DNA of 64,000 bases, counting the filler, from Asterionella formosa (lineage: Eukaryota): the NCBI GenBank assembly GCA_002256025.1. It is 5 parts of 5 records of this genome, joined end to end, with 100 filler letters (N's around TTAATTAATTAA, not from the genome) between each part and the next. Parts side by side here need not be neighbours in the genome. Positions count along the whole stretch, not along the records: positions 1 to 13,049 come from NKIB01006995.1; positions 13,150 to 26,195 come from NKIB01007001.1; positions 26,296 to 39,330 come from NKIB01007002.1; positions 39,431 to 52,445 come from NKIB01007017.1; positions 52,546 to 64,000 come from NKIB01008493.1. The stretch is one strand, 5' to 3'. The position numbers and the translations under genes are program-made. Under the pieces are notes generated by a model that did not search any database, was not told the DNA's origin, and saw only the letters and a list, made by a program, of their open reading frames with translations. Below, piece after piece: positions 1,889 through 56,420 of the stretch. Positions within the stretch are counted from its first letter, which is position 1, and the number at the start of each line of letters is the position of its first letter.

Positions 1889-2494
1889 GGTCAGAGACTG
1901 ACACTGATGAAATTATGGATAACATGTATTCAGTGTACAAGAGGAGGCGTGACACACCAGAGAATGCGTCACTATGAACATTTAACTGTTATAAATTAAA
2001 GTTAAATTAATATTTACTGTGAGATAAGTAATCAAATATAATTCGAGTATCAGAGCGCAATGACGATGTTATATACCGGTATTATATAGCAAAAGATATT
2101 TGTGAAGTAATAATTTTGGCACAAATTTTATTTTGGTATTTCGAAGCACGCCCAGGATAACCTGACATAAGCTAGATTATAGGCAAAGTGGCATAACACG
2201 TAACACTACATATGTGTTGACATGGCCACACTTTGATACATATACTTGAGCTTAAACAGTTCTTTATGATTTCTTCTTTTACTTTGATCTCTCCTCTTGA
2301 ACGTTTGCTTCATCTTTATCTCTTCACGAGATCTTTACACATAGGTAAAAGGAAACAAATTGCAGAAAAGGCTGGCATCTCTCTTGGAATCAGCTTCAGT
2401 CCGTTCACTACTGGGACAGGCAAGAACAAAGTTGGTGCAGCTATTTAAACAAAAACACAAATTAAAATTATGTAGAAACATTACAAGAAAGCGA

Positions 2495-4684
2495 TCATTG
2501 GGACAGAGTCTGCTGACGGCCATCGGCCAGGGCTTTGATGGCTCTGGCGGCATCTTCAGCTTTGGGCATGTTCATTTGTTGCAGGCAAAAGTTTTCAGGC
2601 TTGCCATCTCGCGTTATATGATGAGGAACCTCATACAGCATCTGCGCCAATTGGCGTTCCTCTGGAACTGTCCCTCGCTCATACAGACTCATGAGTAACA
2701 AGTCCCCTTCAGTGTGGACAGCTGCGCAGTGAGCTTTACCCAAAGTCACACAACAAGTTGCGGCCAACTTGGCATGGGCAAGCTCCTCTTTAGTAACGTT
2801 ACCACGCTTGTCGAAGTGGCAGTTGAGAATGTACATGATGCTGTCCAAGATACCTTCGTCGAGTAAGAGGCGAGCCCGCTGTTTGTCTTTTGAGTGGTTA
2901 ATAATTTCCTCCATGGCCTCGTTCTTTTCCTCCATAGTCGTATTTACCGACGCCATGACATCCAGCCACGCCCTAGGTTGTTGGGAGGGCTCCAAGCCAT
3001 GAATTTGCTGTACTGGTACAATCCTTCCGTTCCTCAAGCACGCCACACGCCGATTTTTAGACTGCCCTTGACTAGGCTTTTCATGTGATACACTCGTACC
3101 CTTGACACTGCGATCATCGCCCTTTACAACATTATCGGACTTTCGAATAGTCGAAACTTCATCTTTCGTCATACGCTCGTCTGATTGAAAGCACTGCTTC
3201 ATCTCCATCGGAAGCTTGTTGTTAGTCTCGTGAAATCCTGCTGCACATGTTGACGACAAGGCTTCACTCGCATTCATTGCTGACTCGTGCGCTCGCTGGA
3301 GAGCGGCAGTCGCCTTGGTTCGGACGTTATTCCGCTGTTCCACTGGAATTTGCATGACACCAACGCCTATCCCGACCGTTGCGGCACCCACCAAGAGGCC
3401 GACAGGACCCAGAATCAAGGTTCCAACGGTAGCGGCAACGGCAACACCAGCAGCTGTCTTCACGACTGGTGTGTCCAGAGAGTGGCAGTAGTGCTCGACA
3501 TCTGCCCGAGTCAGCAATGGAGATGCGAAATTTGGATCTTCCACTGATTCTTTCTTTTGATAAGCAGCGGCTGCTTGTCGATTTTCTTCGAATCCAACGG
3601 AATCTTCTTGATCAAAGATTACTGAGTCATCTTGGTCGCTGTCGCGGTCCCCGTAGTCAAAAGTGTCATCGTCCCTGGGCGGTGGAGTGAGAAGATGGGA
3701 TGAGTTTGCGTGCAAGTCATATTGAGACCGGGAACCCTCCGTTTCGTAAGAACTACTGGACATACTGCGTGTCATGACAGAAGGTCTGCGTCCTTCTGGG
3801 AGCATATCGCCCTTGCGCAGTTTCGGCATGACAGGAGCATCCATTATTTGACGAACACTCGTCAACGTGGCTTCGTCGTCAGTAGGGTCGACCGGAGAAT
3901 GCCTCGAATACGTAGGATGGCTAAATACCAATGGTGTCGATCGCGTTTCCACATATTCTTGGTCTACGTTTTGCTGGAGTTGTCCTCGGGATCGTTGCTC
4001 ATATGGACGGCCCATTGAATTCCTGTTAGATTCCTTGCTGATTGAATGACCACCAAGTCCATCAGAGGATGATCTGCGATTGGCTGATTCGGGCGATGGC
4101 TGCTGCCGGCGGGAGGATTGCTTTGGAACTCTCGTTGACGAGTCATTGACTTGGGGAGGTGGTCGAGTGCTGTTCCTCTCAGTTGTTCGAGTACCCTCTT
4201 CTGTTCGATGAACTTGCTTGGCCTTACTGAGTTGCATCTGTTTCCTTTGTTGCCTGGCTCGTCGTCGTTCTGATAACGACGCTGGTGCAGATTGGCGGGA
4301 AGACGAGGCCCCCGGCGACCCGCCTGGCGACGACACTTCTTGTGATGACCCACCTGGTGACGACATGTGTGGTGTCTCTCCAGTGCGATCTACTTCCTTT
4401 TGCAACCGGCTTCGCCTCAAATGAGAGGTAGTACTTGTGGTCGACGCATTGTCACTCATGTCGACTCTCGCCAAGGCGCTCAAAATAGCCTCGCTTCGTT
4501 GTCGATGATCCGATAAGCCACTTTCCGATCGTGGCCCAGTGAGTCCGCTGACTCGCGACAGATCGCTTTGGTTGCGAGAGACTCTCACTTCGATGCCGTG
4601 TTTAGGTGAATAAGGAGGGGGCTCTGTGCGTTTTCCAGCATTCTGGGCTTCGAAGGACGCAATGCGACTTCTGACGATTGACAT
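2495..4684 (-). CDS. Hypothetical protein (~730 aa): disordered Ser/Arg-rich N-half, Gly-rich hydrophobic hairpin, helical C-terminal domain
   Basis: Uninterrupted 2.3-kb ORF; first plausible ATG at 4684 (MSIVRSRIASFE); segment AAGVAVAATVGTLILGPVGLLVGAATVGIGVGVM. Confidence 0.75.
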   Translation of the reverse strand: MSIVRSRIASFEAQNAGKRTEPPPYSPKHGIEVRVSRNQSDLSRVSGLTGPRSESGLSDHRQRSEAILSALARVDMSDNASTTSTTSHLRRSRLQKEVDRTGETPHMSSPGGSSQEVSSPGGSPGASSSRQSAPASLSERRRARQQRKQMQLSKAKQVHRTEEGTRTTERNSTRPPPQVNDSSTRVPKQSSRRQQPSPESANRRSSSDGLGGHSISKESNRNSMGRPYEQRSRGQLQQNVDQEYVETRSTPLVFSHPTYSRHSPVDPTDDEATLTSVRQIMDAPVMPKLRKGDMLPEGRRPSVMTRSMSSSSYETEGSRSQYDLHANSSHLLTPPPRDDDTFDYGDRDSDQDDSVIFDQEDSVGFEENRQAAAAYQKKESVEDPNFASPLLTRADVEHYCHSLDTPVVKTAAGVAVAATVGTLILGPVGLLVGAATVGIGVGVMQIPVEQRNNVRTKATAALQRAHESAMNASEALSSTCAAGFHETNNKLPMEMKQCFQSDERMTKDEVSTIRKSDNVVKGDDRSVKGTSVSHEKPSQGQSKNRRVACLRNGRIVPVQQIHGLEPSQQPRAWLDVMASVNTTMEEKNEAMEEIINHSKDKQRARLLLDEGILDSIMYILNCHFDKRGNVTKEELAHAKLAATCCVTLGKAHCAAVHTEGDLLLMSLYERGTVPEERQLAQMLYEVPHHITRDGKPENFCLQQMNMPKAEDAARAIKALADGRQQTLSQ

Positions 4685-5539
4685 GACGATGTGTGGAAGT
4701 TCGGGGTATGAACAGGAGCTACCTGCGGAAATCAGTAAGTATACCGGTAGTTCGCTTCCTTGTGACGGCGAAGAGAGTGCACCAATTCTTGAGCAACGGC
4801 AAATCAAAGAACAAGCAACGAAAGAGACAACGATGGAACGTTCTCCTTTCTAGAATGCTCTTCTGTCACAACTTTCCAGGTATGTACTGGTAGTTGTGTA
4901 TTTTGGTTTTTATGCACGGTGAAATTGGGTTCACATTGTTGCCGAAGTGCGCGAGAGCGTATCGTGTTGCCGGGGCTGAACTGGCAGCCAGCTTACAGAC
5001 GAAATCTCAACTGTATATTTTATATATGTCAACTCTTTGCTGAGGCATTGGCACTATCATTGAAGATACTCGGTAGTCTGTGGTAAGTACCTGGTACTCC
5101 TAGATACCAAAGTACTGGTACCACGGCAAATTCTTTACGCAGGCTCTAGTGGGCCTACCGGTACTCAAGGCGTTTTCCGTTGGAGACCAGGAGAGGCGTG
5201 CGCTTGGAAGCCGGATGGCGTGCAGAGAAAGGTACGAGAAGAATAATTGACGTTCCCGCAAAAAATTTTAATTTTGGTGATGTCGACCGTATACAACCAC
5301 ACCGCAGACACCACAAATTCTTACTATCGCTCAGTCACCACCTTGATGCCGTCCACGCTACCCCTGGTACCAGGTACCTGGTACCCTGGTACCTGATAAT
5401 AGGTACCTCAGGTAATCACAACGTACGGGAGAACGGTGTGTACATTTTTGGGGTCATCATCAAGCTCTGTATGGACTTGCGCCCCTTAACTTCTCAGATT
5501 TGTCTCTCTCTATTTAATGCTGGTGCCCAGTAAGTTTTT

Positions 5540-5620
5540 TGCGGTCATTTTGCTAAAATAAACAATTTAAAATAGGATAAAGAAAGCTAAAGTTTTAGTT
5601 TCAGCACAAGTACCGCCACT
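5540..5620. repeat. Dispersed repeat fragment shared with 26741-26820
   Basis: gcggtcattttgctaaaat(a/c)aacaat(t/c)taa...aagaaagctaaa occurs at both sites in the same orientation. Confidence 0.75.
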
Positions 5621-6549
5621 TTGACAGCTCGTGTACAGGTGGCACCAGGTACCTATATATACTGGTATATAAAAGTGACTTCGGGTCAGGCATCTTGACT
5701 TCCCTTTCGTGTACCGGTTGTGGTAACCGTATGAACCGTGCAGGTACATACGGTAACCTCCGTACTTCCTCGCGACGCGGAAAATTCCTTAGGTGGATCG
5801 TGGACAGACCTCGGTATATTTATTCCAAATGTCTGGCGGAATTGGTAGTCGCGCGTTCTTCTGCGAACACATGCAATATGTTGTGCTTCAAACTAGGCAT
5901 ATGCAAAGAGCAATTAATTTTGATGGTAAAAAGAATTCTAACTTTTTGCATTGTTTTTTAGCTAAATCAATTTCGTTTTGTCACTCCAAACAAGAGAAAG
6001 GAAATGAGGGTCAATCGAAAACCATAACATTCATTTGTCAGCCAATCTTGGCCACATTTTAGACTAAAGCTTTAACATTCTTTATGGTGAGCTTCAATCT
6101 GACATGTGACATGATTGGCTGAGAGATGAAGAAGTTGAAAATTGCGAAGTAACAATAACATATTTATTGACTTTTAGATCTGGTATGCTTCAACCACATG
6201 GAAACAGCATGTAGAAGCAGTTTCATCACAATAAAGCTCCTAGACAAACCACTCATTAAAAAAAAGAGGATTGTTACAATGATGAGCTTGATTCAAGCAG
6301 CAATTACTCTACTGCTAACTGGGATGTTTTGCCCCGCTTTTCCACAGTGCTGTTGACCTTGAAGCATGCTAACCGCATGCCATGAGTGCTACCATTTTAC
6401 AGAAATAAATCGAAAAGTTGTCTTTATTTGAATGAAGCTTGTGGAAACAACAATGAATGGGTTGAAAGCACCCTCTTCATCCAACAACCAACAAGTGCCA
6501 CAATGGAAATGTCACCCACTAACAAGGCATCAAATGCTATCACAAGCGC

Positions 6550-6864
6550 CACAACAGCAACACAAAACATCTACAAAATCAAGAGCAAGAGGAATGTTTT
6601 CAACACACACAAGTGACAACAAGCGCCCAAAACAAGTAACAAGCACGCAAGCGCCGAAGTGACAATGATACCGGAAGATCTCAGTGCCAAGAACCAACAC
6701 AAGGCATAATGAGCACCACAACAGCAATCATGACATCTACGAAATCAAGACCAGAACAAGCAAGACAATTTTCACAACACACAAACGCCCTCAAGAAGCA
6801 ATAACCAACAAGCACAATGGTACCAGAAGATCTGATTGCCAAGAACCAACACAAGGCATAATGA
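6550..6864. repeat. Imperfect tandem duplication (~150-165 bp units)
   Basis: Both units run from cacaacagcaa...catctac.aaatcaaga to gccaagaaccaacacaaggcataatga. Confidence 0.7.
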
Positions 6865-7599
6865 TAATCAAGCAAGAAATAAACGATTTCATTAAGAAAT
6901 ACATTGTTAGCATAATACTACTCCTTTACACTATAGCTTCAATGGCGCTTTTTTGTTTGATTGATTTTCGACTAGAAATAGTGAAGCTCTACTAGTCCTA
7001 GCAAATACGACTTACTGTCACACCATGATACATGAAAGATATACGACGATACTGTCCCTATTTTTTTATGACAAACTTCACCCGTTTACTGTAACAGTCG
7101 TACATATTCTCCAAGCAATGAATCCAAATAGATAGGACTGTTGCTTTTTAGATCCGTAGTGGTCTTTAAAGTTACCGCCATGGTTGTTTGAAAATCACTA
7201 CCGGTGGCTTTGTCGTGTTAATTGATTCTTAGGGGTATCAAGTCAATTTTTACCAATAATTATTACAGAGCATTTTTCATTCAGTTAGAAGCAGTCAATT
7301 TGGAAAGAAGAAAATTGCTAATGCTCTCGTCGGATCAATGCGCAACTGTTAGAACATAACTAATTCATGAGTGGTTTTGATCTTTCAGGATAATTGAAAT
7401 CAAACAGTATAATTGTTGTAAGTTATAAATAACATTGATGGAAAGATTTATGTGCTCTTGTGCGATATTCGACTGACACGTTATTATTCAGAAATATTCG
7501 AAAATACATAAGTCAATCCAGAATGGGAATCATTTGTTGTGGTGTAAACAAGCAATACAAATGTAACAACTTGCTGCTTCTCATTGTCACTATGATTAA

Positions 7600-9460
7600 G
7601 ATATCAAAATGAATTGTAAATGGAGAAGCATCTCATTTCGATAGCACCTATTCAAAAGAGCAAACGGGCAATCATATGTAAACTGAAGTAAGACATAAGA
7701 GGATAAACAAGCAAACAGTGGTGATATGAGGAGGGAAAGCAGAACAAGAAGGTAGATGAGTAGTTGGCGAACAATTCCTTTCGAATTTGAGTGACAGTGA
7801 GGACAGTTGGTTTGTCTGCAATCGATGTGAGAAGTGTGGGAAGCAAGGGAAGGCTCAGTAAAAATCGCCATCGAGCTACAGTAATCAAAGAACAAGCGAT
7901 GGTGTTGTCATAGTTTAAGGTTGGCGGCCGAAATGACGGTTAGCAGGTTGAAAGATAGAAATGATTTCTAATTATAGTAAAATTAAAATCTATTTCACCA
8001 TATTCACTTTGTTTAGAATTAAGATCATGTTATGATAGATTTATGGTGAAAAATGTACATCATAGGATAATGTTTTGATAATTATATGGTTTGTTATTTA
8101 TTATAAGTATGCTTGTCATGATCATATACATATTCTATACATTTATCATACATATAACAAATAAGTATCATGTGGCAAAAAATTCTGTGCCACATATCAT
8201 AAAATAACCATGATCTTCTAAATAGGATATTTTTATTGCAGATGATGTCGCGTGACTATTGCGTTTTCCTTGCCTTGGCCATTCATCTTGAGACATAATG
8301 TATGGAGTAAGGTGCATCACCCAAAAATCCATCGGTGTTGTCGCTAAGAACCAACGATAGATCAAATGCTAAAAGAAAATCTTATACAATTCTGCGCGAT
8401 GATGTATGGGAAAATCGAGGGTTCAAATGAATGAACAATGGTTTAATTGGCACACACACCCTTCGGAAGTAAACATCAAAACATGCAAGACAAAATGGCT
8501 GCTCTAGGGATGACGTTGCGCTCCATGTACGCTGGAAACGGTGCACAGAACAAGTTGACACTTACATTGATGTTGATCTAACCTATCCAGACGCCAAAGT
8601 TGCGATAGCCCTTTGTATTGGCGCCTCATGTAAGTATCATGTCAAAACAGTGTGTCTGATGATTGGCTTCTGCAATATGTAGCGCTGAATATACGCATGG
8701 AGTTTCCACGCGATGTGGCACTGACGCTGGCATGTCCACTGCTTTGGGCGGTTTTTGGAGCCAAGTCTACAGGGCTTCTTACCAGCAGGCAAGCTGACAC
8801 ACCGGATCCAGATGGCATATGCACTTGTAAGTAATCTTCCAAAAGGTATAAATACTGTGGGAAAACGGCTAATTTTTGTCAATGGTGCAGAGGCGGAACT
8901 CTACATAGACGATATTGGGGATCCAGATGATTTTTGGACAATGTGCTGAGAAAAAGTGGCTGCAATGTCAATAGGAGTAGCTGCAGTGTCAACAGGACAG
9001 ATTGGAGGAGGAGGCGGACAGCACCAAAAACAACAATCCATCAACGCATTTAGTCAGAGAAACGAGAACAAGAATGAAGTCCTTGGGCTGTACTCACAGC
9101 AAAGGGAGTCTCAACGGTATGTGAAAAAGATGCATTGCCAGCTTGCTATCCTTACGAGCACCATGAGTAAGGGGATGTGCAAGATGCAGACAAATTTAAA
9201 TCGACTTTCCCAAATGCCAGCACAAATGCTCAGGGGCAATGTTTCTACTGTTGCTTCCAGTGTAACAAATGCCAACAACAACCCAAATTCAAACATCGAA
9301 AATTTTGCTGTAGGAACCAAGAACAACAACCATGCAAGCAATGATGACAAACAGCCATGGCTGTAGATCCTGTTTATAATAGTAGCCTTTCCAAGACAAA
9401 AAAAACACTATTTGTTCTTTGGCACGAATGGGAAGAAATTGGAATTGCAGGACGAAAGAA
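7600..9460 (+). mobile_element. Degenerate Crypton (tyrosine-recombinase DNA transposon) with GCR1_C-like tail
   Basis: Manual translation gives DYCVFLALAIHLE (~8250) and LIGTHTLRK*..ARQNGCSRDDV..RWKR..QVDTYIDVDLTYPDAKVAIALCIG (8443-8620; HxxR, W and Y catalytic positions), then LACPLLWAVF and LSKTKKTLFVLWHEWEEIGIAGRK (GCR1_C-like). Multiple stops and frameshifts; the 5' boundary is approximate. Confidence 0.8.
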
Positions 9461-10097
9461 GCATTACATTCTCATTTCATTTACAGTATACATTATCACG
9501 TCATTGTTATATTCGCATTACATGATAGCATGCATAACCTGGTATATTATGGCTATTTATACATACAAGCTATATTTAAGATATATATATTTTACCTGTG
9601 TGGATGCATGTGAGGTGACTTTAAACAAGTACCAGCTACATGGTTCTACCGGTACTGGGTACACAGTGTAAGTTTGTACGACATCAACATTTTGCCGCCC
9701 CATCTGCAGTCGTATTTGGACTCTCGCCATCACTCTCCACATTTACTTGTACTGAACATAATTAATATCCGAGACATCACAGACAATCTGATACAGTACA
9801 GGTTCTCTACAATATATATATTTCTATATACCGGAATATATATCATTGATCAATTTCGTCACAAGGGGAGAAGTTGTAAATATACTCCTACATAATATAT
9901 ATGTACCGGTACCACCCCGCCTGCCCGTGGTAGATAAAAAGCACGTTCACCGCAATTTTTAATCATCTTTTTTTTAATGTAGCCTCTCTGATAAATGAAT
10001 CAAAAGATACTTGAACCTATATTGCTGCTTGTCATCTGTGATTTATCTGGTGCTGATTTGCTGTTTAGTAACTAAACGCTATACCACATCCTCATCC

Positions 10098-13149: not shown

Positions 13150-13457
13150 TATTATGACTATTCTATTGCTGTTCCAAGTACATCGTTGTCAGCACTCACG
13201 CATGTACCTAATCTGGTGGCTGCGCCGGTATGGTTCGTACGGCGCATGTATGGAGCATCATATGCAGATATTAACAGAGTCACCAGGTTTTACGGTAGCT
13301 CAGTTAGATGTTCCGATTTGGTCGGAAAAACCTACTGATATTATGTACGGGTACATTGCCGTATGCTGGTCCCTGGCTGCTGCTGTGCGATTGTGAAAAA
13401 CACAGCATCAGTTTGACTGATGAATATTTACCGTTGTTTTGAGTTTTCTCGATCACC

Positions 13458-19054: not shown

Positions 19055-19904
19055 CGTTCGCTGAGATTGCTTTGCTGCTGGTGTAATTGTAACAGCGGTA
19101 GTATTTATAGAATCGAAGAATAGAAATGATATTGCTGATAGAACGAGTATACCGGGGCGGGGGTAGGTAGACAAAAAGCAATAATCGATAAAGCAAATCG
19201 AGATTGAGAGAATTCAGCCAAGAAGTGGTTTACACACGTACATACATTTATGTACGGACGGCTGCATAAATTCATAATTCGTAACAAGAATCGTCATCGC
19301 GCCATCGTCGTAGGCCGATGCCGCCGCGTCTACATACCGGTAGTCCTTTCGTCCCTTTCAAATTGCTTACCGGTGCCTACTTACTAACTACAGTATCGGT
19401 ATGGACATAGCGTTGGATCGTGTTTGATCCAGACGAGGAGGCCAAAGCCATGCGAAGTGCCGTGCGGTGAATGAGACATTTAGCTTGGTTTTCTTTCTAG
19501 TGAGAACCGTCTTTTACCGAACCTCCCTGTAATAACTCCTTGTACTCATTCGTTGTTTCAGTGTAGGTACTGTACCTCCCGGGATACACTTGTTATTTAT
19601 ACTCCCCCACCCACCTGCGTCTGATACGTACGTACCTGGCAGTCCACTCCAATACCGGGATCATGTCGTAGCAAAATGCCCTCGCATCACGCATTTGCTT
19701 GGCTTTCTTCGTACTCGCTCTTTTAAAGTATTGCATGTTGCTCATACATATATATAGTCGAGGCTCAATAACGCGTACTTAAAAATTTAGTTACCACATA
19801 TATATAAGAATATCTGTATGTGCATGTGTGTATGTACCGGTAGCTGTTGTTCTTGTTCTTTTCCATTGCAGCATACCATTAAGTGAGTAATCGAGCAGTT
19901 GACG

Positions 19905-25357: not shown

Positions 25358-25842
25358 GCCTGACAATGATTTGATGATGGCTTTTTATGTTCGATGGATC
25401 CGCCATGAATTATACATCAGTTTGTCGTCTACCCTATGTACTCAAATAGTCTTATTTTTAGCTTACCGGTACATAATATATAGTGTAATACTCCGTACAT
25501 TATAGTACTTACTCCTTACCGGCATGTTGTTCGCGCTATCCCCAGAGCATATTGTACGGTACATACGTACTTTACGGTCAACACTCTCGCGTCAATTGTT
25601 CGCCGCAGCCAGCAGCCTCCAACAAATGCAAGGATGCCGGTATCCTCGCAGCAGGGAGTCTCCTCCCTCGCTCGGTCGTGTCTGTTTTCCCTCCATTTAC
25701 AATTCTATTCACACACCGGTACTCAATTGATTCAGCGTCCGTTGCTCTCCGTCAACATCTATACTTCAACTCCTTCTATTATTACTATTTGCATTGCATT
25801 GTCGCAATTCATGTCAGGCATCACACTATAGATTTCGCAATT

Positions 25843-26295: not shown

Positions 26296-26399
26296 CCGAA
26301 ATACCATTACTCTGGGACTCGGTACCTGGTACCTGGTACTGATTCACACACCGGTATTTAATTCAAATTTTCAAATGGACACTCGAATCATGGGAATTC

Positions 26400-27200: not shown

Positions 27201-28150
27201 ATAATAATCTACCTGTACCTGGTAGGTAGTCTATGATGAAAACTGTATTTTTAACGTGGCGGTGCACTGAAAGGTTTTCTTCGTTTCACAAATTTTACCG
27301 GTACCGGTAAAGCGTAGTCTTGTAGACCACCCTTGTATTTGTACACAACTCCAATTTTTTCCGTATACCCAGGTACCTGGACCATCCACCGTGTACCTGG
27401 TACCAGGTACCACGGTTCTGTCCCTTGCCCTGGTACCCCTCTTGGCAAAAACACGCGCAGCGATCGTTTTAATTCCATATCTATGGGAATTTCACGACGT
27501 CAGCAAAAGGACAGTACCTCCATGACATTCAGGCTGAACCAGAAACATCGACGTCAGCATCAAGAAAAATTCTTACAAATAGGTACTGAAACAGAAAAGT
27601 AGTCTAATATGTATGCTTAATTTTGGAACAGTCGAACCAGATTTCTCGACCGTGAATTCGGCCTAGGCTGTTTGTAGTTTTGTCGAACTGGTAGTAGACG
27701 ACCGAAGGATAAAAGGTTTTAAAATTAGAGACAAAGGTTCCCGCTTCTCCAGCGAGATTCGGATGCTTATGTACATCTCAGAATTAGTTCGATACCTGCT
27801 TGGACCATAGCTATTCATCAGTTCAGCAGGGAAGTACAATGGTACCAGGTACCTCGTACCTTGTACTACATACCAGGTACCCTGGCACCACTTAATACAG
27901 ACAAAGTGTGTACACAAGACAAAACGTTTCCTTTTTATTGTTGTACCGGTTGCTATGTGACGCCCGGTAGATATACTTTTTCCCTTGCCTGGCAGCGGCG
28001 ATAGATGTGCCCGGAAGCAGTTGTTGCGTCAGATGTGGGGTAACTTTCAAGCGAACTTTTAATTCGATAATCTCGTCTTGCAACACTTATCGAACCTTAA
28101 CAGCCTTATCACCGCTCCCTTTTCCTCCACATCATAGCCTAGCTGTGACG

Positions 28151-38382: not shown

Positions 38383-39140
38383 GGTTGCAAAGTTTAAACG
38401 GCGTTTTTGGCAACAACCGTGTAGAATCCAAATAGTTCTGCAGTGGAACAGTACCGGTATTTATTATTACGCTCGTGTATGAATATATTAAGAACAGGAT
38501 CATGCACTGACTATTTATTACCGGTTCATGTTTTCTGTTTACCATAATGCATAATGGAGTACCGGTATGTAGTCTATTGGTACCTGGTACGCAAATAGAG
38601 TACCAGGTACCCTGGTCCAAGGAGATAAAGGCGTTATTTAGTACCGGTAACACGAAAGGGCGACTCGATTTGAATTTACCAGGAGCCTGGTAGCTACTTT
38701 ATGTACAGTACTGCTCGCGAGACAGTGAATGAGTGGAAAGTACCGGTAATTTGAATTTCGAAGAATTGATTCTTGGACAAGGCAGCGACTACTATTATGT
38801 AGATACAGTACCAGGTAGCATTCCGCAGGACTACAACAACAGCCAGCGAGCCAAGGCCAGTAATGAATGCTACGCAAAAATTCAGAAACAACGGAATCTT
38901 AAATATATACGCACGGGTGCTGTATCGAATTATCTTTTTCATATTCACTACCAGGTACCGGTATCTCATTTTTTACTCAGAGTACTACTACAGGTTCTAA
39001 GTTCTACCGGTAGGTATACAACGACACTACATATGTATCACATTCGCGCATACAAGGGTTGTCAACTCAACGACAGCAGTCTTGATTGTGAATGAAACGA
39101 TCTGAGAACATTATTAGTTTGCTTGCCCAAAGATTGAACC

Positions 39141-40539: not shown

Positions 40540-40980
40540 GCCCTCCCCGGCAGCCGTAGCCTGTTCAGCTTATTCCATGGCCAATACGCACCGCTAGCCG
40601 GTCTTTCCACCTCTCGGACAACGCCCTTCTCACCCATTTCAACTCTCTTTTACCACAGCCCACCTCCTGGACACTGCACCGGTTGAATCCCATCATGCTC
40701 TCCTTGCTGACCTCCGTGCTGTTCAGCCAAGCGGCCGTTGGCTCTGGAGTCGAAGTGTCCCCGCCCTGCACCCGCACCACATCCTTCACCTGGCACCTCT
40801 GGGTCACTTTCTGCTCCACCCTTGACCTTGACCCTTCCCCCCCCCCCTCCCCCTCCTTCCAGACTTCCGCGATAATAAATCCCATGGGGAAACACCTAGT
40901 ATACCGGTACGGACTCTGTGTGCAGTGGTAACAAGGTGCTGGAACTCCTAGTAAACCCGCCATTACCACCATCACCCAGA
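40540..40980 (+). mobile_element. GC-rich fragment of a DIRS/Ngaro-like tyrosine-recombinase retrotransposon
   Basis: Translation ASRSFHLSDNALLTHFNSLLPQPTSWTLHRLNPIMLSLL resembles the RNase H tail of such elements; HLWVTFCSTLDLDP resembles the start of the YR ORF; abrupt GC shift. Confidence 0.55.
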
Positions 40981-41388
40981 TTTACCTACCACTAGTTTTA
41001 ACTTCTAGACCCCCGTATCAGGGTTGAGTAGAAACGGGAGTCCTAGGCAAAGCGGGTACAGAATACCGGTAAATAGTCAACTATTTTATCATTTTATCCC
41101 GGGATGAATAAATTTATCTGGCACAAAAGAAAATAGGAGCTGAAATGACGAGACAACATGACACCAACATTTGCTTGTCACGACTCCCATGTATAAAATG
41201 TATCACAATTTTAAGTTGTAGACTACGTCGGTACTCCACCGAGTACCAACTTGATAGTTCTACTTGATTGATGCATAGGCACTGCTACAATTTGCCTTGT
41301 CGCTGCACACAATTGATAGCCAACCAACCACCCCTGCAGTCTAGCACATTGCAGCCAATGTTCGCATTGCGCAATGCACACAAAAAAC

Positions 41389-44740: not shown

Positions 44741-45033
44741 TAAGTACCGGTACCGGTTGGGTTCTTAGGGAAATAAATTGCGAGGTCCAACATAAATATA
44801 TATCATATCAAAAAAATTCCATCCATGCTCTTTTTGGCAAGAACGGCCGACCGAAGACGAGAGAGGGGACGACCCACTAAAGAACGAGTTCCGTTTCGGG
44901 CCATAATTTATTCAGCGTTGAAAGTCCACTACGGTAGTCCATACCGAATTGATGTGTAATTCTGTTCATTGCCGACTTGCTGCCGACTACGGTTCACACA
45001 GCACGGAGTCACTGCACAAATCTATGGAATAGC

Positions 45034-46162
45034 ATGTCTCGTAGTACGGGTAATCACATCAAAACACCAATCATTACTCCCGTAGCTTGCCTGGACTTGC
45101 ACGGATACCGAAAGGAGGCTGCCATTCGAGCCCTGACTGACTTCATTGAACGTTTGTCGTTGAATAGACCAACTTGTGATGGTTCCGTTTGGGTCAATGT
45201 CATTACAGGTTCTGGACAACATTCTTCGCAAGGTGAGACTCAGCGCTCTCGAAACAGGAGAGTTTAGGGATGGGTGCCTCATGTGCATAATATTGGGGAG
45301 TGAGCGTGTGGGCTCACCTAACTTTTTGCGCATGTTGTATGCTACGTCAAAATAACGAATAAAACTCTAATAAACAGGCCCAGTGCTTCGCACGGCAGTG
45401 GATAAACTGCTTCGAAAGAGACAAATGAAATTCATTCTAAATGCGGATAAGGGAGGATTTCTCGTTGATGCTTCATCTGGAATCGTATTGTATGCCAGTG
45501 GTCCGCCGACAGATACGAAAGTGGTGGTTCGAAGCATGACACTATCAGAGAATAATAATATTCCACTAGTAGGACGAGTCCCTCCCAAGATACTTGTGAA
45601 TCCTCCTGCAGAAGATAATCAACCACTGCCTGTTCATGTCGCGCAAGACGACGCCCTGTTAGAACAAGCCAAGGAAGTTTCTCGGAAACAACGTCAGACC
45701 GAAGCCACATTGGATGTCAAGGAACGACAAGCATTGAAAAAGGCAATGTCAGATAGCATGTTGGAACATCTGACTCTGCAAAAGAATCAAGAACGAGAAG
45801 ACGATTCTTTGCAAACTGCATTAATAATGTCAGTGCCATCTGTAGATAATGAGGACGAACAAATACTGCAGAAAGCCTTGCTGGAATCGAAGCTAATGTT
45901 TGAGATGAGCAAGAATGATGTCGAACTGGAAGCAGCACTAAAAATGAGTGAAAGTCACTTTCATATTTGTGATTCAGAGATTGATGCTTTGGATTCTGAA
46001 TTGCAAGAAATACTACGACAATCTGCTGAAGAGTTCTCAACAGTACAACCAATGCCTGAGGCTCTGATGAAATCGCCACGTCCGCACGAGCTACCAAGCC
46101 CAATATCCGAAGAGCATGGAATGACTGGCAAAATTGCACTTGAAAAGTTTCGTATGATCTGA
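45034..46162 (+). CDS. Smr-domain protein with ~6 UIM-like repeats; 2 exons (45034-45232, 45378-46162)
   Basis: LDLHGYRKEAA..VITGSGQHSSQG/PVLRTAV..L..NADKGGFLV across a GTGAG..CAG intron; repeated acidic-L-x-x-A-L-x-x-S motifs follow. Confidence 0.88.
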
Positions 46163-47511: not shown

Positions 47512-50310
47512 GGTCAATGAATGAGGAAACTTTAAGATGGTATCAAGACGATGAATCGATAGTCTACCTTGCTTAACTATTGACACCATCGAAAGAACGG
47601 AGGGAACAAAATAATTTATGTAGACAAGAAAGTGACAGGAAAAACACATACCCGTATGTAGTTCATAAACGTACATAAAAGCCCGGTCAATCTGACATAA
47701 ATTCGTTATTTATATATATAACACGGTACTGCGATGTTCTTCATTTTGCAGAAGTGGTTGTGTTGCATTCAGTGTAAAATGATGTAGCGACTGTTCATGC
47801 TACATACACCATGATAATTCTATGTCAACATAGTACGTGACGGTTGCATCATTATGTAGAACACCAACAGTCATACCCTGGGAGGGACAGGAGCCCGTTT
47901 TTACAAGCAACAAGGGGCGGCGGCTGAACATTGCAGTGCTGCATGTACTTCGCTCGTCCTGGTAGGTTTGGAAATCGCTCGTTTTGAAAAAGGCATCAAG
48001 AACAGGACACAGCATTGTTGGCAGTTGTCTAGGTAAATAACAGTACCAGTAGTACCAGGTGCTCCGTCGACAATTGATTACCGGTCATAAAAGTGCCAAG
48101 ATATACTCGAAGTGCCAGGTACTACCAGGTACCGGTACCAGGTAATACTCGCAGTTTATGAGAAGCAAACATGCAGCTAATCATGTGCGTACCGGGGTAC
48201 AGTAGTGACAGATCTCCATGTTCCTTGGGCGGGTATGTTAAATTTAGGGTTCTACCGGTACATTTATGAATTAAGCATGGCGTGGGACGGTCATTCTCTT
48301 TTGTTCCTCAATTTTGAGCAGGGACTCATCCTCGGCTAAGTAAACTCTCTGATCTTCAACTGCAACATCCGCCATAATTGTTCGCTTGTCAGCTGTGGTG
48401 ACGTCTGCTCATTTATTTCATTGTGTGTTCCTCATGACCTGTGCCCATGATCCATGTTCCATTTTTATTATGTAGACACAAATGACCTTTTCGATACCAT
48501 GGATATTGAAAACAAATGATGCATAACCGAGCATTCATGAAAAATCCTCGATGTACTCATTTGGTAGTCTCCAGAGTCTCCTTCTCCTTGTATTCAACAG
48601 TGCAAATTGTAGATCTGCAATTCTTGGCAGTAGCACTAGTAGTCTGAGGACCTGGTACTTGTCCATATATTTACAGTAAACTATGTCACAATACAAGTAA
48701 TATAGATCATATCATCAATACCAGGATGGTCCAGTAACACATGTTTTAAAAGCACCATTTTCATTTTCAATCCCTTCCCCATGAGATGTTCCATCCCTGG
48801 TGCCAGGCAAGATAGGCCAGCTTTCGATTGAATAATATTCCTTAAGTAATTTAGAAAATAATTACTTGTATTGTTGACCAACGACAATTTGCAGATTCAG
48901 TTGCTCAACAGGACTTGGATTTGCTGACAGATGAACTGGTTCAGCAAATTGTCTTCTAGTTTCAGCATACAAATAGTAGGAATTCCTTTCTACATTTTAG
49001 AACTTGCTGACAAGGACATGACTTTGCTGACAATAACTAGTTTTCTCATAACAATTAGAATCTGCTGGCAAGAATGATTAGGACTTGCTGACAACAACCA
49101 GAACTTGCTGAAGATTAATAGATTCTCTGAATGACCCTTTGCATATGAAGTATATACATGAACAGATACAACCATCTTCCAGTTGCTGAATACCACTGGG
49201 AGTAGGTGAACACGATTTGGATTAAGAACACAACTTGGATTTAGTGAATGAACTTTAACTGCATCGAAAATTACTTAAGAGAGTTCTTTGGAATTGAAAG
49301 GCATCCCATTTCTTCTGACAAGCATGGCACAAATCATAGGGAGAGAGTTGATAAAATGTGTGTTAGTACAGACCTTCCAGGATATTTGTGTCGTGCAGCT
49401 ACTACTTAGCTTGCAAGAGATATCATAATGGTACCAATAAAAGCAATTTTATGTACCGTGGCTGCTCTGGTATATTGATTTACTTCTTCATAAGGACTAA
49501 AACTATTCACCCTCTAGGGGAAGCAATGGCTCAGTTGCTTGGAGCCATTGCCTTTGATTTGAAGTTGTGTGGTTCGATGCCCGCAGTTTTTTGAGAAGCA
49601 ATTGTTGGGTTCAACTCCCACACTCTTCAACGTCCTATGCGGTCTTGCCTGGTGTGCAAGGAAAAGTGGGTTGCCCCCTTACATGCAGTGTGCCGCCTTC
49701 CTAGACGATCGGATTTCCCCTAAAGCTGCGGCTAAGATGATCATCTTTTGCGAAGATGGTTGGGGACTCACCTATGCTAACAAAACTAGGGAAGCACACA
49801 GACTTGTTGGCAGGCCATGCTATGAAATTCCATGTGTGATTCTTTGGTCTTAGAAAGCGCATTATATGTGACTTCCATTTTAAAAGTATTCACCCTCTGT
49901 TCCAGTATGGCTAGTTGCAACATGATCAGCAACTATACTTTTGTGAAGTCCAACTGTAGAAGATTCAATATCAATGCTGGCGATGGGTGCTTTGGTTAAA
50001 TTAGTATATTAAGGTGAGTACTGGTATATCATTTAACAGCAATACAGTTTCATCATAAAGGGCTTTTGAATTTCGATGGCCAGTCATTGGCATGCATATA
50101 TAAGCATTGAGTGTGAAAACGAAATAGCTAGCTAGCTAAATAAATGGATGAGCTTGCATTTATGGGGGAAAATATTTGTTCAAGCAAGGTCCTCAAATAA
50201 TCGAACTTAAAATATGTGCAAGTCTGGATTTATGAGAAGCTGGCCATTCAGTTCGACAGCCCCATCAGCCTCCCTTTTGAGGTTGCAAAAGGAGCAACCA
50301 ATCAACAATC

Positions 50311-51700
50311 ATGACCTCGAAAGCGCCTCGACAAGGCAATGTCTTGCCTCGGAAGAAATTTTCTCCTGAAGAGTTGGTCAGTGTTCAGATTTGTCTTAAC
50401 AATGTGACTAGGGAGCTAGAAGCTAAGAAGGCTAACAATGGTAGAAAAATGCCTTATGGTGCTATTTCTAGGACAGTATCAGCTAAGCAATGCATTTTCC
50501 CTTGGATATCTGTTAACCAAGTGAAGAATGAACTAAAACGAAGTGCTAAACTAGAAGTTAAGTCTAGTACTAATATCTATACTACTTCTGGTTTGTCCCT
50601 CTTTCAATCATCAACTGCAACCATGGTGTCTACATTGACACCTGACCATTGTGGCCCTACTAAACCCCAATTCTTGAATGCTGATGGCAGCTTTGCCTTG
50701 TTATTTCCCAGCAATTTCATTCATAATTCATATGAAATTGTCAAGGAGGAAGAAGATGACAACAATGAAGGTGTGAGTGAGCATTATGATAGTCAGTTTA
50801 CAATGGGCACTTTGGCATATGAACCTGGAAACAATGGTGTGCTTACCTGGGGAAGTTTGGAGGCAAATACAAACACAACAAAAACAAACAAGGAGGACAT
50901 GAGTAGTACAACGAGGATGGTATCCCCGGAACTATAATGTCTTGCTTCACCCTGAGATTCAACTAAACCTACCACAACAGAACATCAATGCGCCCACAAA
51001 GACTGCCACTCCCCCTGCTCCTGATGAGTTAAACCTCCAAACTGGCTTTGCTGGAACAATTTTTGGAAGAATCAACGAGTTTTGCAAATGCGAGGATGTG
51101 CGAAATGGAATCGACTGGGAGGCCCAAGCTAGAAAGAGAAAGGAGACAGCGGATTCACACATTGAGGGACACAAGAAGAGGATAACAGCAGGACTACTGG
51201 CCTCTGCACAAACCTTTGCCCTTGGGCCAAATATTCTTGCTGCTACACTGGAACGGAAGCGAATTTCAGACATTGTCATTAGTACAAAAGAAACAAAAAG
51301 GCAACAAGAATTCAATACACTTCGCGGAAAAGTACTTACATTGAGGGAACAGAGCAAAACAAAAGAACAGATGTCTGTGCCAGAATTGAAATAAATGGTG
51401 CGTTGGTACAAACGATCAGGTGATTTGCCGGTTCCACAAACAAGGCAAGCTCTGATTACAAGATTCGACAACACCAATCACCATGGTGACCAGCAGCCGC
51501 CATTCCCTCTCCATACACCTCTTATTGCTGTGGTTGTTTTTACTGCACCTCCTCCTGTTGCTATTCCCTCTCCTTTTACAACTGCTACTGCCTATCCACC
51601 ATTCCGTGATGAAGTTTGAGACTCCACAACAAGCAAGTAATTGGATGCAAAGAAGCTCGAGATTAATGCAATGCATCAGAAGAATTCTCCAACAATGATG
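50311..51700 (+). mobile_element. Internally deleted, decayed pogo/Tc1-like transposase-related sequence
   Basis: N-terminal GRKMPYGAISRTV..FPWIS and C-terminal KKRITAGLL..LK*MVRWYKRSGDLPVP resemble ends of diatom pogo-like proteins (recall). No DDE core is seen; stops are present. Confidence 0.4.
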
Positions 51701-52445
51701 CTGCCCTGCAAAAGTGTAAAACGTAAAGTAATAAGAAAATAACTTTTGTAGTATTAATGGAGTAAAATTAAACACGGTTTGGGGGGAAAATATATACATG
51801 TACAGATAGAAAAATATGCACTGTAAGCCACTGCTATGCAATAAGCTTAGTGACTTTGGGAAAATTATTTCTTCATGGCTAGATACACTGAATCAAAACT
51901 GATTCCTTAATAGTATAGCAGAGAGCATTGCCTAACATAAGCTTTGTACTTGCGTCAAGTTTTGATCGTTGAATTACATAAATATTTTTAGTCGAAAGAT
52001 AGAGTAAAATAACGGTGGCTTACAGTTTTTAAGTGGTACCATACTTCGATGATGATGACTTTTTATTAATTATGTAATCCGTAACAACTAATGTTCCTGG
52101 TAATCTACTACCATATTGTATGGACACTTCGTTTGTAACAATAGGTGGCAAGAATCACAGTGGCGTCGATACCGTGTTCACAATGATTGCAACGAGGAGC
52201 ACAATAATGTCCATGGTAAGAGACACTGACATGCAGAGTTCCAACTTTACATGGTTGTGAATACCGACAGTAGTAGATCGTAATACTTTATGGTCAAGAA
52301 AGATCAAATGATTGAAAGGAAAAATCGGCCTATTATTACCTTATGATTCAAACAAAGTGTTGGTATGTAACAGTCGAACATGTATTAATTTACATGGATT
52401 GCAGGTGCTCAATGATGCCCTTGCCATCGGTTAGCTCTTGGGCGA

Positions 52446-52545
52446 NNNNNNNNNNNNNNNNNNNNNNNNNNNNNNNNNNNNNNNNNNNNTTAATTAATTA
52501 ANNNNNNNNNNNNNNNNNNNNNNNNNNNNNNNNNNNNNNNNNNNN
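52446..52545. other. Artificial contig spacer
   Basis: 100-bp N-TTAATTAATTAA-N. Confidence 0.97.
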
Positions 52546-54400
52546 TCCGATAATTGTACAAAGATTCCAAAATGTGCCAACTTAAATATTCCAAGTAGTA
52601 ATTGATGAAGAGCCTCAAATGTAGTTGCACCAAATAATCCTTCTAAGTCACCACCAAAGAAATGATTTATTATTGCAGGCATAATAGGATTATGCAGGCA
52701 TAATAGGATTATGCGATATAACACGGCACCACTCGTTTGCTGTTGCGTATTTGCCATTAGATTGGGAGACACAATACTCAGGTGGGATACATGGTAATTG
52801 ACCATCCGGATATGCATTTTTGTCAAGAAACTTGTTTAAAAATATTTTAACATCTGACACTTTACGACGTTCACATCCAATATCAGGATTATCAGCATCC
52901 TCAGTTGAAAACAGGCAATCACGACAAACATATCGTCGATATAATCCATTGCCAACCCTGAAACCACAAATTTTTTGTGTTCTTCTTTATCACCAATGAT
53001 CATTCCAATCTGAAAATAAACTTTTGTCATACAAAGACCATGAACCCAAATATCGTATGACTTGTTTGGATCGCTCGTCTTCGAAAGGCGACAATAGAAA
53101 TCCTGTAACAGAATGGTATAATTTGAGTCTACATAACAAGGACAAGTCGTCACCAGATAACTTATTATTCATTTGTTTCTGCAGATCACTGACTTCAATG
53201 ATGTCTGGCAAAAGAGATACCAATTGCGCCATCCACCAACTTTTTTCTTCCTTCTAACGTTAAGTTTAACATTGTCAGCGAAAACGGATGCTCAGAATGT
53301 TTCACTTGTTTATCAATAGGTGAACCATCACTGAAAACTGCTAGGGCAACAAATAAACACCCTGTCTTCACTTCAACACTCCATTTTCTGATGCAGGAGA
53401 ATTGTTGAATGCATTTTCAAACCAAGTCGCAGAAGTTACTTTGTCATATATGCATTCTCCAAAAGTTGTTAGTTTCACTTGTGAGTGACGTACAAAATGT
53501 TGGATGATATCGGAATCACAAAGCAATCCTGCCATGAGCTGTACTGGTTCGAAAAAATGGAGTGTGCGTGGGATGATCATGTTTGAATTGTTATCAATCT
53601 TTATTTGTTTGGTCAACAGTTGACCACCAGCTAATGTTGGTTGACCACCAGCTTATGTTGGAAAAAAAGAAATATCCATGCGTTTTTTCAAAGTCTGGTA
53701 GGATGGAGCTTGATACCTTCCATCAAAATATTTCATTGCTTTTGCCTTGAACAGCCATTTCATTAGATGATCAAAGTAAACTGGTGAAAGGTAATTCTCG
53801 TTGAGGAATAACATGAGTTCTAATTCGATTGGATGAGCGCATGTTTTGAGAATGTTTACTTGGAAGTTGAAATTGAGGAGGAAGGGGCATTTCCATTGCA
53901 TTTTCAGGGAGAAAACCGGCGTGATCTTGAAAATCTGAATGTTGCATGCTTTCTGAATTCAACCCTTGGAGAGTTTTTAGTCTCAATTGTTTGTCCTGTT
54001 GTGACTGAATATTGTTATAAACTGAATCGTTGCTGTCGTCATGGAGTGGATGATTGTGGTCACTTGATTCAAGGATACTAGGACACATAATCTCTTCTTG
54101 TCTAATCTCCCTAAATGCTGCAGCAGTTACACTGCCTGCCATCATTAACTTCTTTCCTTGAATGATTCGATTCACTACCGCAATACATAGTATGTATTCC
54201 AGGAACTCGATGTTCTTGCATGCAATGTCGACAGTGACCATATGCATAAAAAACACGGTTGCTACAATTTCGATTGTGAGACTCAGATGGGGATTTGTTT
54301 TTCCGAATTTTGTAGTTACACAGATAACACCATTGCAATGTGCGCAAAGACATTGCAAATTGCAAATGATGACCAAGTCAGGATATGAAAAGGATAGAAT
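52546..54400 (-). mobile_element. Degenerate Plavaka-type (CACTA-related) transposase
   Basis: Fragments LMAGLLCDSDI, TSATWFENA, LAVFSDGSPID..SEHPFSLT, VSLLPDI, KLYHSV, MIIGDKEEHKKF, CRDC and FEALHQLLLGIFK in order across several frames; Cys-rich N-terminus. Confidence 0.65.
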
Positions 54401-56068
54401 GAAAATGAATTAATAATAATGAATTTGGCATCACTCCGAACATGCTGTGCTGGACAATACAGAATCGTGAAATTATCACTCCACCATAGTAGTAAAAAAT
54501 GGAGGTATACCGCTACATAAAGTACAGTCGGCACTACTACCGGTAGTATAGAGCAATATCATCTTTTTCTTCTTAACATCTATGATATGGTTTGCATTGT
54601 AGAAGTCTCACTTACTATATTTATTACGTCATTAAGTATGCATTGGATTCTTTTAGATTCATTCAAAATCAACGTTGTCATCAATGTCCCTGTTGATTAA
54701 TGCGGTTATTGTATTCAATATTCATCACAGAAACATTTGGTTGAAGTGATTCAACATATTGATGCATATCCTCTTCACTTACGTTGGGAAATGAGAAATA
54801 TGAGTGTGGGTAGACAAATTCACCGATGCGGGTCATTAGGAGCTCGCCCCGCTTGCGCGCCCTGCCACATCAGTTCTTTGACAATTACTGATTCTACTCA
54901 TTTTATCTTATTTTGTTATGAGATGGGGGGATGTTAGGAATCACCTCTTCATATGACATGTCAATATATGTCTGTTTTTCATACAGTGCCTATCTTATCT
55001 AAATATTGTTCTTCCATATCAACTTAATCTAATCATTCCTTTAACAAACACCACACCTTCTTCCCCAATCTCCTTTTGAGCTTGTCAGGCTAGTTATTGG
55101 ACTCCCCTCCTCTCTTATCTACTTGTTCATCAACCTTGTCGATCTCTTCTCATCTATTTCTAAAAAGCATAGAAAACCTTATCTAGTCAAAGTTATCCAG
55201 CTAATCGCCGCAGACTCAACACGCACTGTCTCGTTTTTGGTCATATCTTAAAATCTGAGCAAATGACGAGCAAATGACAAGCGAAAACAACTTCCAGGGG
55301 CGATTTCAACTTTTTGTTGTCAGTTTTTATTTATAGAACAAATACCTCATCAATGATAGACTACATATACGTGAGAAAAAGGAATTGTTCATCATGAATA
55401 TTGGTGGAGATATTCGTCCAATAATTTCGTCATGGTCAAGACAGAGCTGCTGTCTCATCTTCCTCCTACAGGGTTACGGGAAATGAAAGATTATGGTAAT
55501 AAATGGAGTGATACATTGAATATGGAATACAATAGACTACACATATTTACTGCCAAGAAGCAAAAGGCTGCGATCATCAGCTCAGCCACTCATGGCAAGG
55601 AGTATTACACAGTGCTCCAGGTACTGATACCACCTAAAAACGACTACCTTGAACCTATATTTCACTATGTTCGATCGATTAGTATGGCTAAACATTGAAA
55701 CATTCATTTCAATCATCTTCGATGCTCCAGATGTTCTCGAGAGGTGGGGGATCAATGATGTGATGGGAAGGCCACAGCAGCAGTACAATTGCATTTGCTT
55801 GTGCCAATGGTACCATGGTACATCATGCATGCTATTCTATATTGGTATTTATCGCTATAGCATTACATTCATCAAATTATATATTTCTACGTAATAATAG
55901 CTGATAATAAGATCTTATTTATTGTAAAATTATTTAGTAATATATATTAGAAATAATAGCAATCTTATAAATGTGATCAAACTATCATAGGTTTAGTTAC
56001 AAGTGATTGTGAGTATGTGATAATGAATTATAAGTTCACTGTTGTAATCATACAATAATATGATATTA

Positions 56069-56290
56069 ATGGTACGATCTCTTTTGAGTGTACAGAAGCG
56101 TGGAAAAATGGGGAGAACATAGGAGATCCTGCTACATTTTTGGGGAGAAATTCTCCCATTTTTTCCGTGCTGACGTTTATTCCCCTCTAGTTTTTAACAC
56201 GTATATTTTCTGCAGCCCCGTCAGCAGCGGCTTTTTGGGGAGACTTTTCTCCCCAAAAACATGTGGAAACAGCGTTCAATTTTGTACCAT
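56069..56290. repeat. MITE-like element with internal inverted repeats
   Basis: Termini atggtacga / ttgtaccat; internal ggaaaaatggggaga pairs with tctcccattttttcc, and ttttggggaga pairs with tctccccaaaa. Confidence 0.5.
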
Positions 56291-56420
56291 CGTAGGATTC
56301 ACGTTGACAGTACATGCATGATAGCTTACTGCTAATACTAGCTATACCGGTAGTACTAGGGGTTCCGACTCAGCCAATTATGAACATCAATTGAGAACAA
56401 AAACAATCAACAATATACCT

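Follow-up and report, generated by a model that had tools for sequence, protein, structure and literature searches.

The palindrome TACCGGTA and its longer relative TACCWGGTA (hereafter the W word), which crowd the upstream flanks of genes in the diatom Asterionella formosa, are very probably excision footprints, or scars, of TA-targeting pogo transposons, most likely left by two families resident in the same genome. The data fit a division between two writers, in which a family with loose target choice (family A) would leave TACCGGTA and a family that targets GG-TA-CC (family B) would leave the W words and their arrays. The starting point is a window of 64,000 nucleotides from assembly GCA_002256025.1, in which an earlier note, made from the sequence alone, had counted 23 copies of TACCGGTA and had suggested either a lineage-wide cis-element or a sequence actively written at open chromatin, conceptually like cyanobacterial HIP1.

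The excess extends across the genome. In the 68.4 Mb assembly, with the reversed word as control, TACCGGTA occurs 28,528 times against 1,718, TACCWGGTA 26,886 times against 902 and TACCSGGTA 2,562 times against 517; three pure units in a row are found at 50 places, and TACATGTA, a word known from oomycetes, is not enriched (2,333 against 3,176). Within 334 kb of sampled DNA, weighted towards long contigs, TACCGGTA is the top over-represented 8-mer, 59-fold above a second-order model, and TACCAGGGTA is also enriched. Neither a library artefact nor the body of a single miniature inverted-repeat transposable element accounts for these sites, given that contigs of two sequencing runs from two studies (X2 and X6) span several of them without a gap of 6-7 bases, and that the flanks of the sites are unrelated to each other. 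The X2 contigs cover window positions 38356-38681 with zero differences, and over 38455-38991 an X6 contig differs by one letter and two gap letters; the sites are therefore real and common to both studies.

Gain of the words at TA and the resident pogo-type families

The suggestion that the sequence is actively written is borne out by repeat copies, in which the word is gained as an insert of 6 or 7 bases with its target TA duplicated. The copy of TACCGGTA at window position 2074 is missing from all 27 other aligned copies of the PIF/Harbinger-type element that carries it, and the closest of these (e.g., L042, L043 and L046) have a plain TA run at that place, so the window copy has gained CCGGTA. 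In a comparison of 189 sequences (837 kb, enriched for repeats), 94 motif sites fall within alignments: 28 have an empty partner, 16 have full-length partners that differ by substitutions, 10 are the same in their partners and 40 are unclassed. Several of the 28 have at least three empty partners, and their direction therefore points to gain.

Indel contexts counted independently of the motif give the same picture. TACCGGTA represents 19 of the 89 distinct six-base contexts; six further TA-bounded six-base contexts start with TAC or finish with GTA and mostly resemble decayed forms, and among the 89 no other TA-bounded insert recurs, bar one decayed form seen twice. At other lengths we find TACCGTA (4 of 50 five-base indels), TACCAGGTA (3 of 34 seven-base), and TACCATGGTA (1 of 26 eight-base); of the 24 contexts 13-14 bases long, three are double units. 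This spectrum across lengths identifies the unit event as TA becoming TA-core-TA, and against the empty site the target TA stands duplicated around a short core, as in a footprint.

A second TA-bounded insert recurs de novo in these counts, TAGCTA, which makes up 14 of 194 four-base indel contexts, twice doubled (e.g., L006:6319, L026:1330, L040:4204, L048:1746), and is 2.3-fold enriched without 5-prime bias. TA-C/G-TA contributes 26 of 431 three-base indels, and four-base indels (194) outnumber those of two (147) and five (50) bases, many of them being short duplications. In L053 and L055 (G000 C1037 and C1030) the Harbinger-type subterminal region is present twice, inverted, as if elements had been joined end to end.

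A scan for TA-flanked inverted repeats, together with a DDE_1 search of the genome (93 matches), recovered elements that target TA and begin with the letters found in the scar cores, namely CCGT-ended and CCAG- or CCAC-ended families; a DDE_3 search of the genome gave 0 of 16 candidates of Tc1/mariner type. Family A, with CCGT ends and terminal inverted repeats (TIRs) under about 40 bases, is 2.46 kb long and encodes a 421-residue DDE_1 protein with DD35D catalytic spacing (35 residues in L127). Ten copies are 99-100% alike over ~1.95 kb, the open reading frame (ORF) stays open up to the contig edge, and an empty paralogue demonstrates duplication of the TA. Pfam gives BrkDBD at E=0.0067, below the cut-off, and does not report HTH_Tnp_Tc5. 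On these sequence features, family A fits a young, apparently intact, Passer-like pogo element. A second CCGT-ended subfamily is also present, and a loose pattern covering both finds 596 ends against 309 for its control. Besides the transposase, the family A element encodes 124-145 residues in an additional ORF (L127:781-1215, also L132), which converges on the transposase ORF and has no Pfam match.

Family B has CCAG or CCAC ends, one 16-letter form of which occurs 221 times exactly in the genome against 0 for controls, and it comprises short copies of 0.4-1.1 kb and copies of 3.4-3.5 kb with a broken, seemingly pogo-like transposase. Its broken ORF pieces have no Pfam match, BLASTP of one piece against the family A transposase (L127) gave no match, and Atlas feature matches of 0.91-0.93 to HTH_Tnp_Tc5/DDE_1 clusters rank behind two unnamed clusters. 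The D-to-D spacing is 37 in one broken copy, with motifs read by eye, and the target is strictly GTAC. Family B (L101, L102 and window 50281-52040) may be an undescribed pogo-like group. The window contains one remnant of each family (Table 1); that of family B is matched at 51717-52038 by blastn of the CCAG/CCAC-family element of L018, and its ORFs at 50281-51394 resemble, as judged by eye, the ORF pieces of L101 and L102.

The flanks of the scars mirror the targets of these elements, clearly so for the W word and family B. Among 53 ends of family B, 94% carry G at -1 and 83% carry it at -2, in keeping with a GG-TA-CC target, and W words have G at these positions in 80% and 64% (n=329 half-sites); the flanks of family A (n=38 ends) and of TACCGGTA (505 half-sites) are both near background, and their agreement is weakly informative.

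Tc1/mariner excision leaves overhangs of 2-3 bases. When end-joining products were listed for overhangs of 2, 3 and 4 letters, those of 3 letters accounted for most of the observed word set: CCG ends yield TACCGGTA by a perfect 2-base overlap and TACCGTA and TACCSGGTA by mismatched overlaps; CCA ends yield TACCWGGTA, TACCAGTA, TACCATA and TACCATGGTA; and CAG ends yield TACWGTA and not TACATGTA, which agrees with the lack of enrichment of the latter. TACCAGGGTA would require a 4-letter overhang. A model with 2-base overhangs ranks below that with three, because neither TACCWGGTA nor TACCSGGTA comes out of it and CAG ends would be expected to produce TACATGTA. Duplication of a 4-base (GTAC) target with CAG ends performs the same as its rival at GTAC targets and fails at two W gains outside GTAC (L161 and L104).

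Chains of units are expected because every scar offers GG-TA or TA-CC, the family B target. Single units make up 500 of the 579 distinct chains, and the 95 adjacent unit pairs comprise 38 W pairs in the same orientation, 21 W pairs in opposite orientation, 24 mixed pairs of 4- and 5-base units, 8 pure 4-base pairs and 4 with S units. One homologous TA is empty in five repeat copies and holds two W units in L161; in L105 a family B element of 398 bases resides there beside a single W unit and a variant unit. Slippage acts on long pure runs, as seen in one multi-copy repeat (L187-L192; G000 C4502, C4556, C5659, C6456, C8085 and C7797) with 3, 4 or 5 pure TACCGG units, where a 13-base difference falls between two adjacent TACCGGTA words in copies that are otherwise near-identical.

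Position relative to genes and competing origins

Taking 136 long ORFs in 534 kb as stand-ins for genes, with flanks of 800 bases, the 5-prime bias claimed by the earlier note is strong, though not absolute: of the 255 copies of TACCGGTA, 114 fall solely in an upstream flank, 17 solely in a downstream flank and 13 in both kinds at once, with 104 elsewhere in non-coding DNA and 7 inside long ORFs. Per 100 TA, the upstream flanks hold 2.06 TACCGGTA and 1.48 TACCWGGTA, the downstream flanks 0.42 and 0.12, the remaining non-coding DNA 0.67 and 0.44 and the ORFs 0.10 and 0.09, so that upstream density exceeds downstream density ~5-fold and ~12-fold (binomial p < 1e-12). Per kb, TACCGGTA stands at 0.04 in long ORFs against 0.29-1.7 elsewhere, and sites are borne by 8 of 12 divergent and 2 of 12 convergent gaps. 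The upstream profile is a plateau from 100 to 700 bases without a sharp peak. CG/GC is 0.80 upstream against 0.53 downstream, and perfect words exceed the TACCAGTA class more strongly upstream (odds ratio 2.7), both as expected if promoters are unmethylated. One-mismatch neighbours per perfect word are scarcer upstream for TACCGGTA (0.35 vs 0.53, p=0.08) and for the W word (0.67 vs 0.96, p=0.15), a hint, not a result, that words are retained there.

A rough rate follows from 19 gains over 14,483 TA contexts at a pairwise divergence of 0.108, or ~0.02-0.03 scars per substitution, the two counts having passed different filters. With eight mutable letters per word this rate gives ~0.3 scarred per 100 TA, near the 0.42-0.67 observed off 5-prime flanks; upstream DNA lies three to five times above the scar density of downstream and other non-coding DNA.

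We propose that these scars accumulate as follows. Elements insert at a TA and duplicate it, the step that the empty paralogue records. By the biology of Tc1/mariner/pogo elements, excision would then leave overhangs of terminal letters, and end-joining would seal them into TA-core-TA; with 3-base overhangs, a cleavage fitted to the observed words, CCG ends would give TACCGGTA, and TACCGTA and TACCSGGTA less frequently, and CCA ends TACCWGGTA. Each scar in turn creates GG-TA or TA-CC, and family B, which prefers such targets, would presumably revisit them to build mixed, randomly turned chains, while slippage could extend runs of at least three identical units. The 5-prime excess would reflect more frequent insertion and excision in open, unmethylated promoter chromatin, where whole elements may be purged and the scar alone survive, which would reconcile the mismatch seen in family A flanks; slower CpG decay in promoters may add to it.

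Several observations weigh against an origin by excision. Forty of the 94 aligned sites are unclassed, and some of the 28 with empty partners are double views of one event or ambiguous arrays; at L132/L174 a single empty copy stands against a majority of full ones, which leaves the direction ambiguous; and every gain event seen lies in repeats, none in a host promoter (searches of metagenomes for orthologous promoters returned 0 matches for a CAP-H2 query and one weak match of 21 residues, which was unused, for a lipase query; contigs of four runs compared with window positions 26296-39330 supplied coverage, the indels listed being filled by repeats). Overhang length is a fitted value. More than half of the W pairs, 38 of 59, have both units in the same orientation, a sign that slippage or an orientation bias is at work to some extent. 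A source element for the TAGCTA insert was not found among the elements recovered, and GGC-ended elements should yield TAGGCCTA, yet 534 kb holds 3 copies of it, and 35 of TAG[GC]CTA. The 94 element ends gave empty paralogues and no pair of occupied and bare-scar alleles, and the excision event itself was not seen in the compared sequences. Finally, the ~55,000 scars face a few hundred element ends, and surviving family A elements do not lie in motif-rich DNA, with 0.75 TACCGGTA/kb in their flanks vs 1.5 upstream of ORFs.

The roughly hundredfold surplus of scars over element ends, the CCGT elements not concentrated at scar-rich places and the excision not directly seen would all suit an enzyme of the host, or else a transposase, free or domesticated, that writes the letters at TA by templated insertion at open-chromatin breaks, the whole element never having been present. 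We regard this as unlikely, since the insert spectrum tracks the terminal letters and the separate target preferences of two resident families, an element occupies the very TA where scars accumulate, and the rough rate estimated from repeats has about the magnitude that the scar density outside promoters requires. Somewhat less probable again is that the word is primarily a transcription-factor site (dimeric or MYB-type) built and kept by promoter selection, which is the cis-element origin of the earlier note. The strong 5-prime bias and the somewhat rarer near-matches upstream speak for such a site, as do two parallels in oomycetes discussed below, where TACCGGTA itself is a listed promoter motif (PMC3597505, PMC3520976, PMC10031896) and the sister word TACATGTA is bound by PsMyb37 (PMC11134190). 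As an origin, however, it is contradicted by the arrival of the word as a block, with target duplication and with letters that match the ends of resident pogo elements, within the bodies of transposons, in which a host site would not be expected to come under selection. The core that varies between 4 and 5 bases, the TAs shared by chained units and the plateau in place of a sharp peak also count against it. These arguments bear on origin only, and the scars may later have been co-opted as binding sites.

Substitution directed by methylation or repair, turning near-matches into the palindrome in the manner of HIP1, is very improbable. It draws on the extreme excess of one palindrome containing CCGG/CCWGG and on the 16 of 94 aligned sites that differ from their partners by substitution only, yet those cases are compatible with decay, chiefly at CpG, the gains are 6- or 7-base inserts with TA duplicated and letters from pogo ends, and the word is some ten- to thirty-fold rarer in ORFs. 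Microsatellite slippage or an assembly artefact, for which the repeat with 3, 4 or 5 identical units in near-identical copies might be cited, is the least probable of all and is refuted as a general origin: most chains are single units, mixed and opposite units occur, inserts start from a bare TA, and independent runs share the same sites. Slippage may still operate on long pure runs. Excision by pogo elements is the reading we carry forward.

Features of the window

All 23 copies of TACCGGTA in the window stand exactly where the earlier note had placed them, and the chance expectation is indeed low, ~0.85 from base composition and 0.19 from dinucleotide shuffles, with 0 of 100 shuffles reaching 23. 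The note was likewise right that the four convergent spacers it named are empty, holding 0 TACCGGTA and 0 TACCWGGTA, and that the promoter at 22073-22520 is without the element, since it lacks both words. Six TACCGGTA and four W sites lie in the CAP-H2/FAH divergent spacer (38061-39330); both gene identities stand, and the named homologues of the CAP-H2 protein come from diatoms. The claim that nearly all sites precede a start applies to 20 of the 23, which lie ~60-900 bases before an ORF start, and has to be given up for site 2074, which is no gene flank. These ORF starts were placed by hand, and 3 of 12 are a few bases off. The arrays are present, though better written as TA(CC[W]GG-TA)n with 4- and 5-base units intermixed (e.g., 48123-48144).

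The window consists of five contigs linked by artificial N44-TTAATTAATTAA-N44 spacers (13050-13149, 26196-26295, 39331-39430 and 52446-52545), because of which the segment 26296-27970 begins at a contig edge; the spacers cut the ORFs at 9999-13097 and 25489-26247 and FAH at 39141. Of the five contigs, only that at 1-13049 maps to G000:C6995. Sequencing runs that contain window DNA are, where habitat-labelled, from freshwater, lake or algal samples. The ORF at 9999-13049 encodes 1,000 residues with a coiled-coil start and several long internal repeats, without a convincing Pfam match. Those at 27971-29383 and 29856-31286 are convergent and have common motifs by eye, one matching DUF5939, and are possibly a duplicated pair.

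Table 1. Copies of TACCGGTA, W units and pogo-type remnants in the window, with their settings.
Feature	Position	Strand	Setting	Details
TACCGGTA	2074..2081		inside subterminal region of a multi-copy PIF/Harbinger-type element	+6 insert at TA vs other copies
Cluster	4742..5410		upstream of ORF 2495-4849 (-)	TACCGGTA at 4742 and 5156; TACCTGGTA at 5088; chained W units 5363-5385, degenerate tail
Putative decayed scar TACCGGTG	7199..7206			+6 insert at TA vs repeat copies (compared with L029)
Two TACCGGTA	9647..9911		upstream of ORF 9999-13049 (+)	
Orphan terminal repeat of the CCGT-ended, putatively Passer-like pogo family	13283..13297	+	near contig start	followed by TA
Two TACCGGTA	19335..19842		helicase/lipase divergent spacer	
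TACCGGTA	25464..25471		divergent spacer upstream of gamma-glutamyltransferase gene	
Two chained W units	26323..26338		contig start	
Cluster	27216..27881		upstream of ORF 27971-29383 (+)	W at 27216, 27843 and 27871; double unit 27296-27309; W chain 27394-27411
Six TACCGGTA and four TACCWGGTA	38452..39012		CAP-H2/FAH divergent spacer	includes mixed chain 38949-38963
Two TACCGGTA	40902..41071		upstream of CoA-transferase gene	
TACCGGTA	44745..44752		upstream of ORF 45374-46162 (+)	
Mixed chain and TACCGGTA	48123..48260		upstream of HSF gene (-)	chain 48123-48144 (5-, 4- and 5-base units); TACCGGTA at 48253
Internally deleted CCAG/CCAC-ended pogo-type copy	50281..52040	+		right terminal repeat 52023-52036; TA 52037-52038 within GGTACC
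TACCGGTA	54538..54545		~130 bases past start of stop-to-stop frame 53771-54409 (-), without an assigned host gene	
TACCGGTA	56345..56352		~145 bases ahead of frame 56490-57314 (+), without an assigned host gene	

Comparison with known systems

Transposons are usually tallied by their resident copies; here the departed ones would leave the larger record, ~55,000 intact scars that dominate the promoter k-mer spectrum, one word alone marking 2 of every 100 TA sites upstream of genes. Such scars would provide a genome-wide, datable map of past cut-and-paste activity and of open chromatin. In both diatoms and oomycetes, a scar can emerge from motif discovery as a top "binding site", and the later regulatory recruitment of scars becomes a testable question. 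In a literature search, mostly without subscription papers, we found, among the matches listed, no report of the word in diatoms, nor of footprints as the dominant word of a genome.

Passer is defined by DD35D, with either BrkDBD together with HTH_Tnp_Tc5 or HTH_Tnp_Tc5 alone as criteria (PMC7386202), and the Passer TIR oligonucleotide starts with TA-CCGTA (PMC9976928). Family A, which is placed by its features, resembles it in TA duplication, short TIRs with a CCGTA start, one DDE_1 transposase of ~420 residues, DD35D and possibly a weak Brinker-type domain, and differs in that HTH_Tnp_Tc5 is undetected by Pfam and in its extra ORF of 124-145 residues; it would thus give a diatom a Passer-like element that is young and apparently intact. 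Passer footprints are of 0-4 bases, and the element favours transcription starts in human cells (PMC9976928), a preference that would fit the upstream excess here, although the surviving family A elements do not sit in motif-rich DNA. Family B, with DD37D in one broken copy and a strict GTAC target, matches none of the fixed spacings that PMC7386202 lists for Passer, Fot or Mover.

The closest parallel to the word itself comes from oomycetes, another stramenopile group, in which the identical palindrome is abundant upstream of genes and is described as a binding site, listed as promoter motif M94 (PMC3597505) and motif-9 (PMC3520976; sequence quoted in PMC10031896). Its sister TACATGTA, the M93/motif-1/AM-20 of oomycetes, for which a Tc1 footprint origin was raised and then set aside (PMC3520976), has been shown to be bound by PsMyb37 (PMC11134190); it is this word that is unenriched in A. 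formosa. TIRs start with CCG in 10 of 15 oomycete Passer rows (the first 15 of 49 stramenopile rows, Table S1, PMC7386202), and the same footprint origin for M94 is therefore a live idea. A bolder and doubtful extension would join these strands: pogo excision would supply the commonest promoter word, a second family would home on the scars and amplify them, the host would have co-opted them as binding sites, and M94/motif-9 would share this origin, the stramenopile "cis-element" being a scar seeded afresh in each lineage. The finding would gain interest if co-option of the scars were established, or if they accounted for the oomycete motif.

HIP1 is a cyanobacterial palindrome of 8 bases that occurs far above chance genome-wide, in coding as well as non-coding DNA. 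The word studied here is likewise an 8-base palindrome in great excess; unlike HIP1, it is scarce in ORFs and concentrated in 5-prime flanks, exists in more than one length and is gained by insertion, the target being duplicated.

The likeness to footprints of the IS630-Tc1-mariner/pogo superfamily is closer, comprising insertion at TA, a duplicated TA and a few terminal letters between; Passer adds to this its CCGT ends and a preference for transcription starts, the latter known from human cells. Examples are the Tc1 footprint taCATGta, as cited in PMC3520976, and the ZB excision footprints of 0-3 bases (PMC7913693). Such footprints have been described as rare traces, either at single loci or in assays, whereas here ~55,000 intact copies form the most over-represented words of the sampled DNA, gather upstream of genes and form chains, the scars being targets of one family. 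Footprints of this superfamily have long been known; what is unusual in A. formosa is their scale, their promoter bias and their self-targeting chains.

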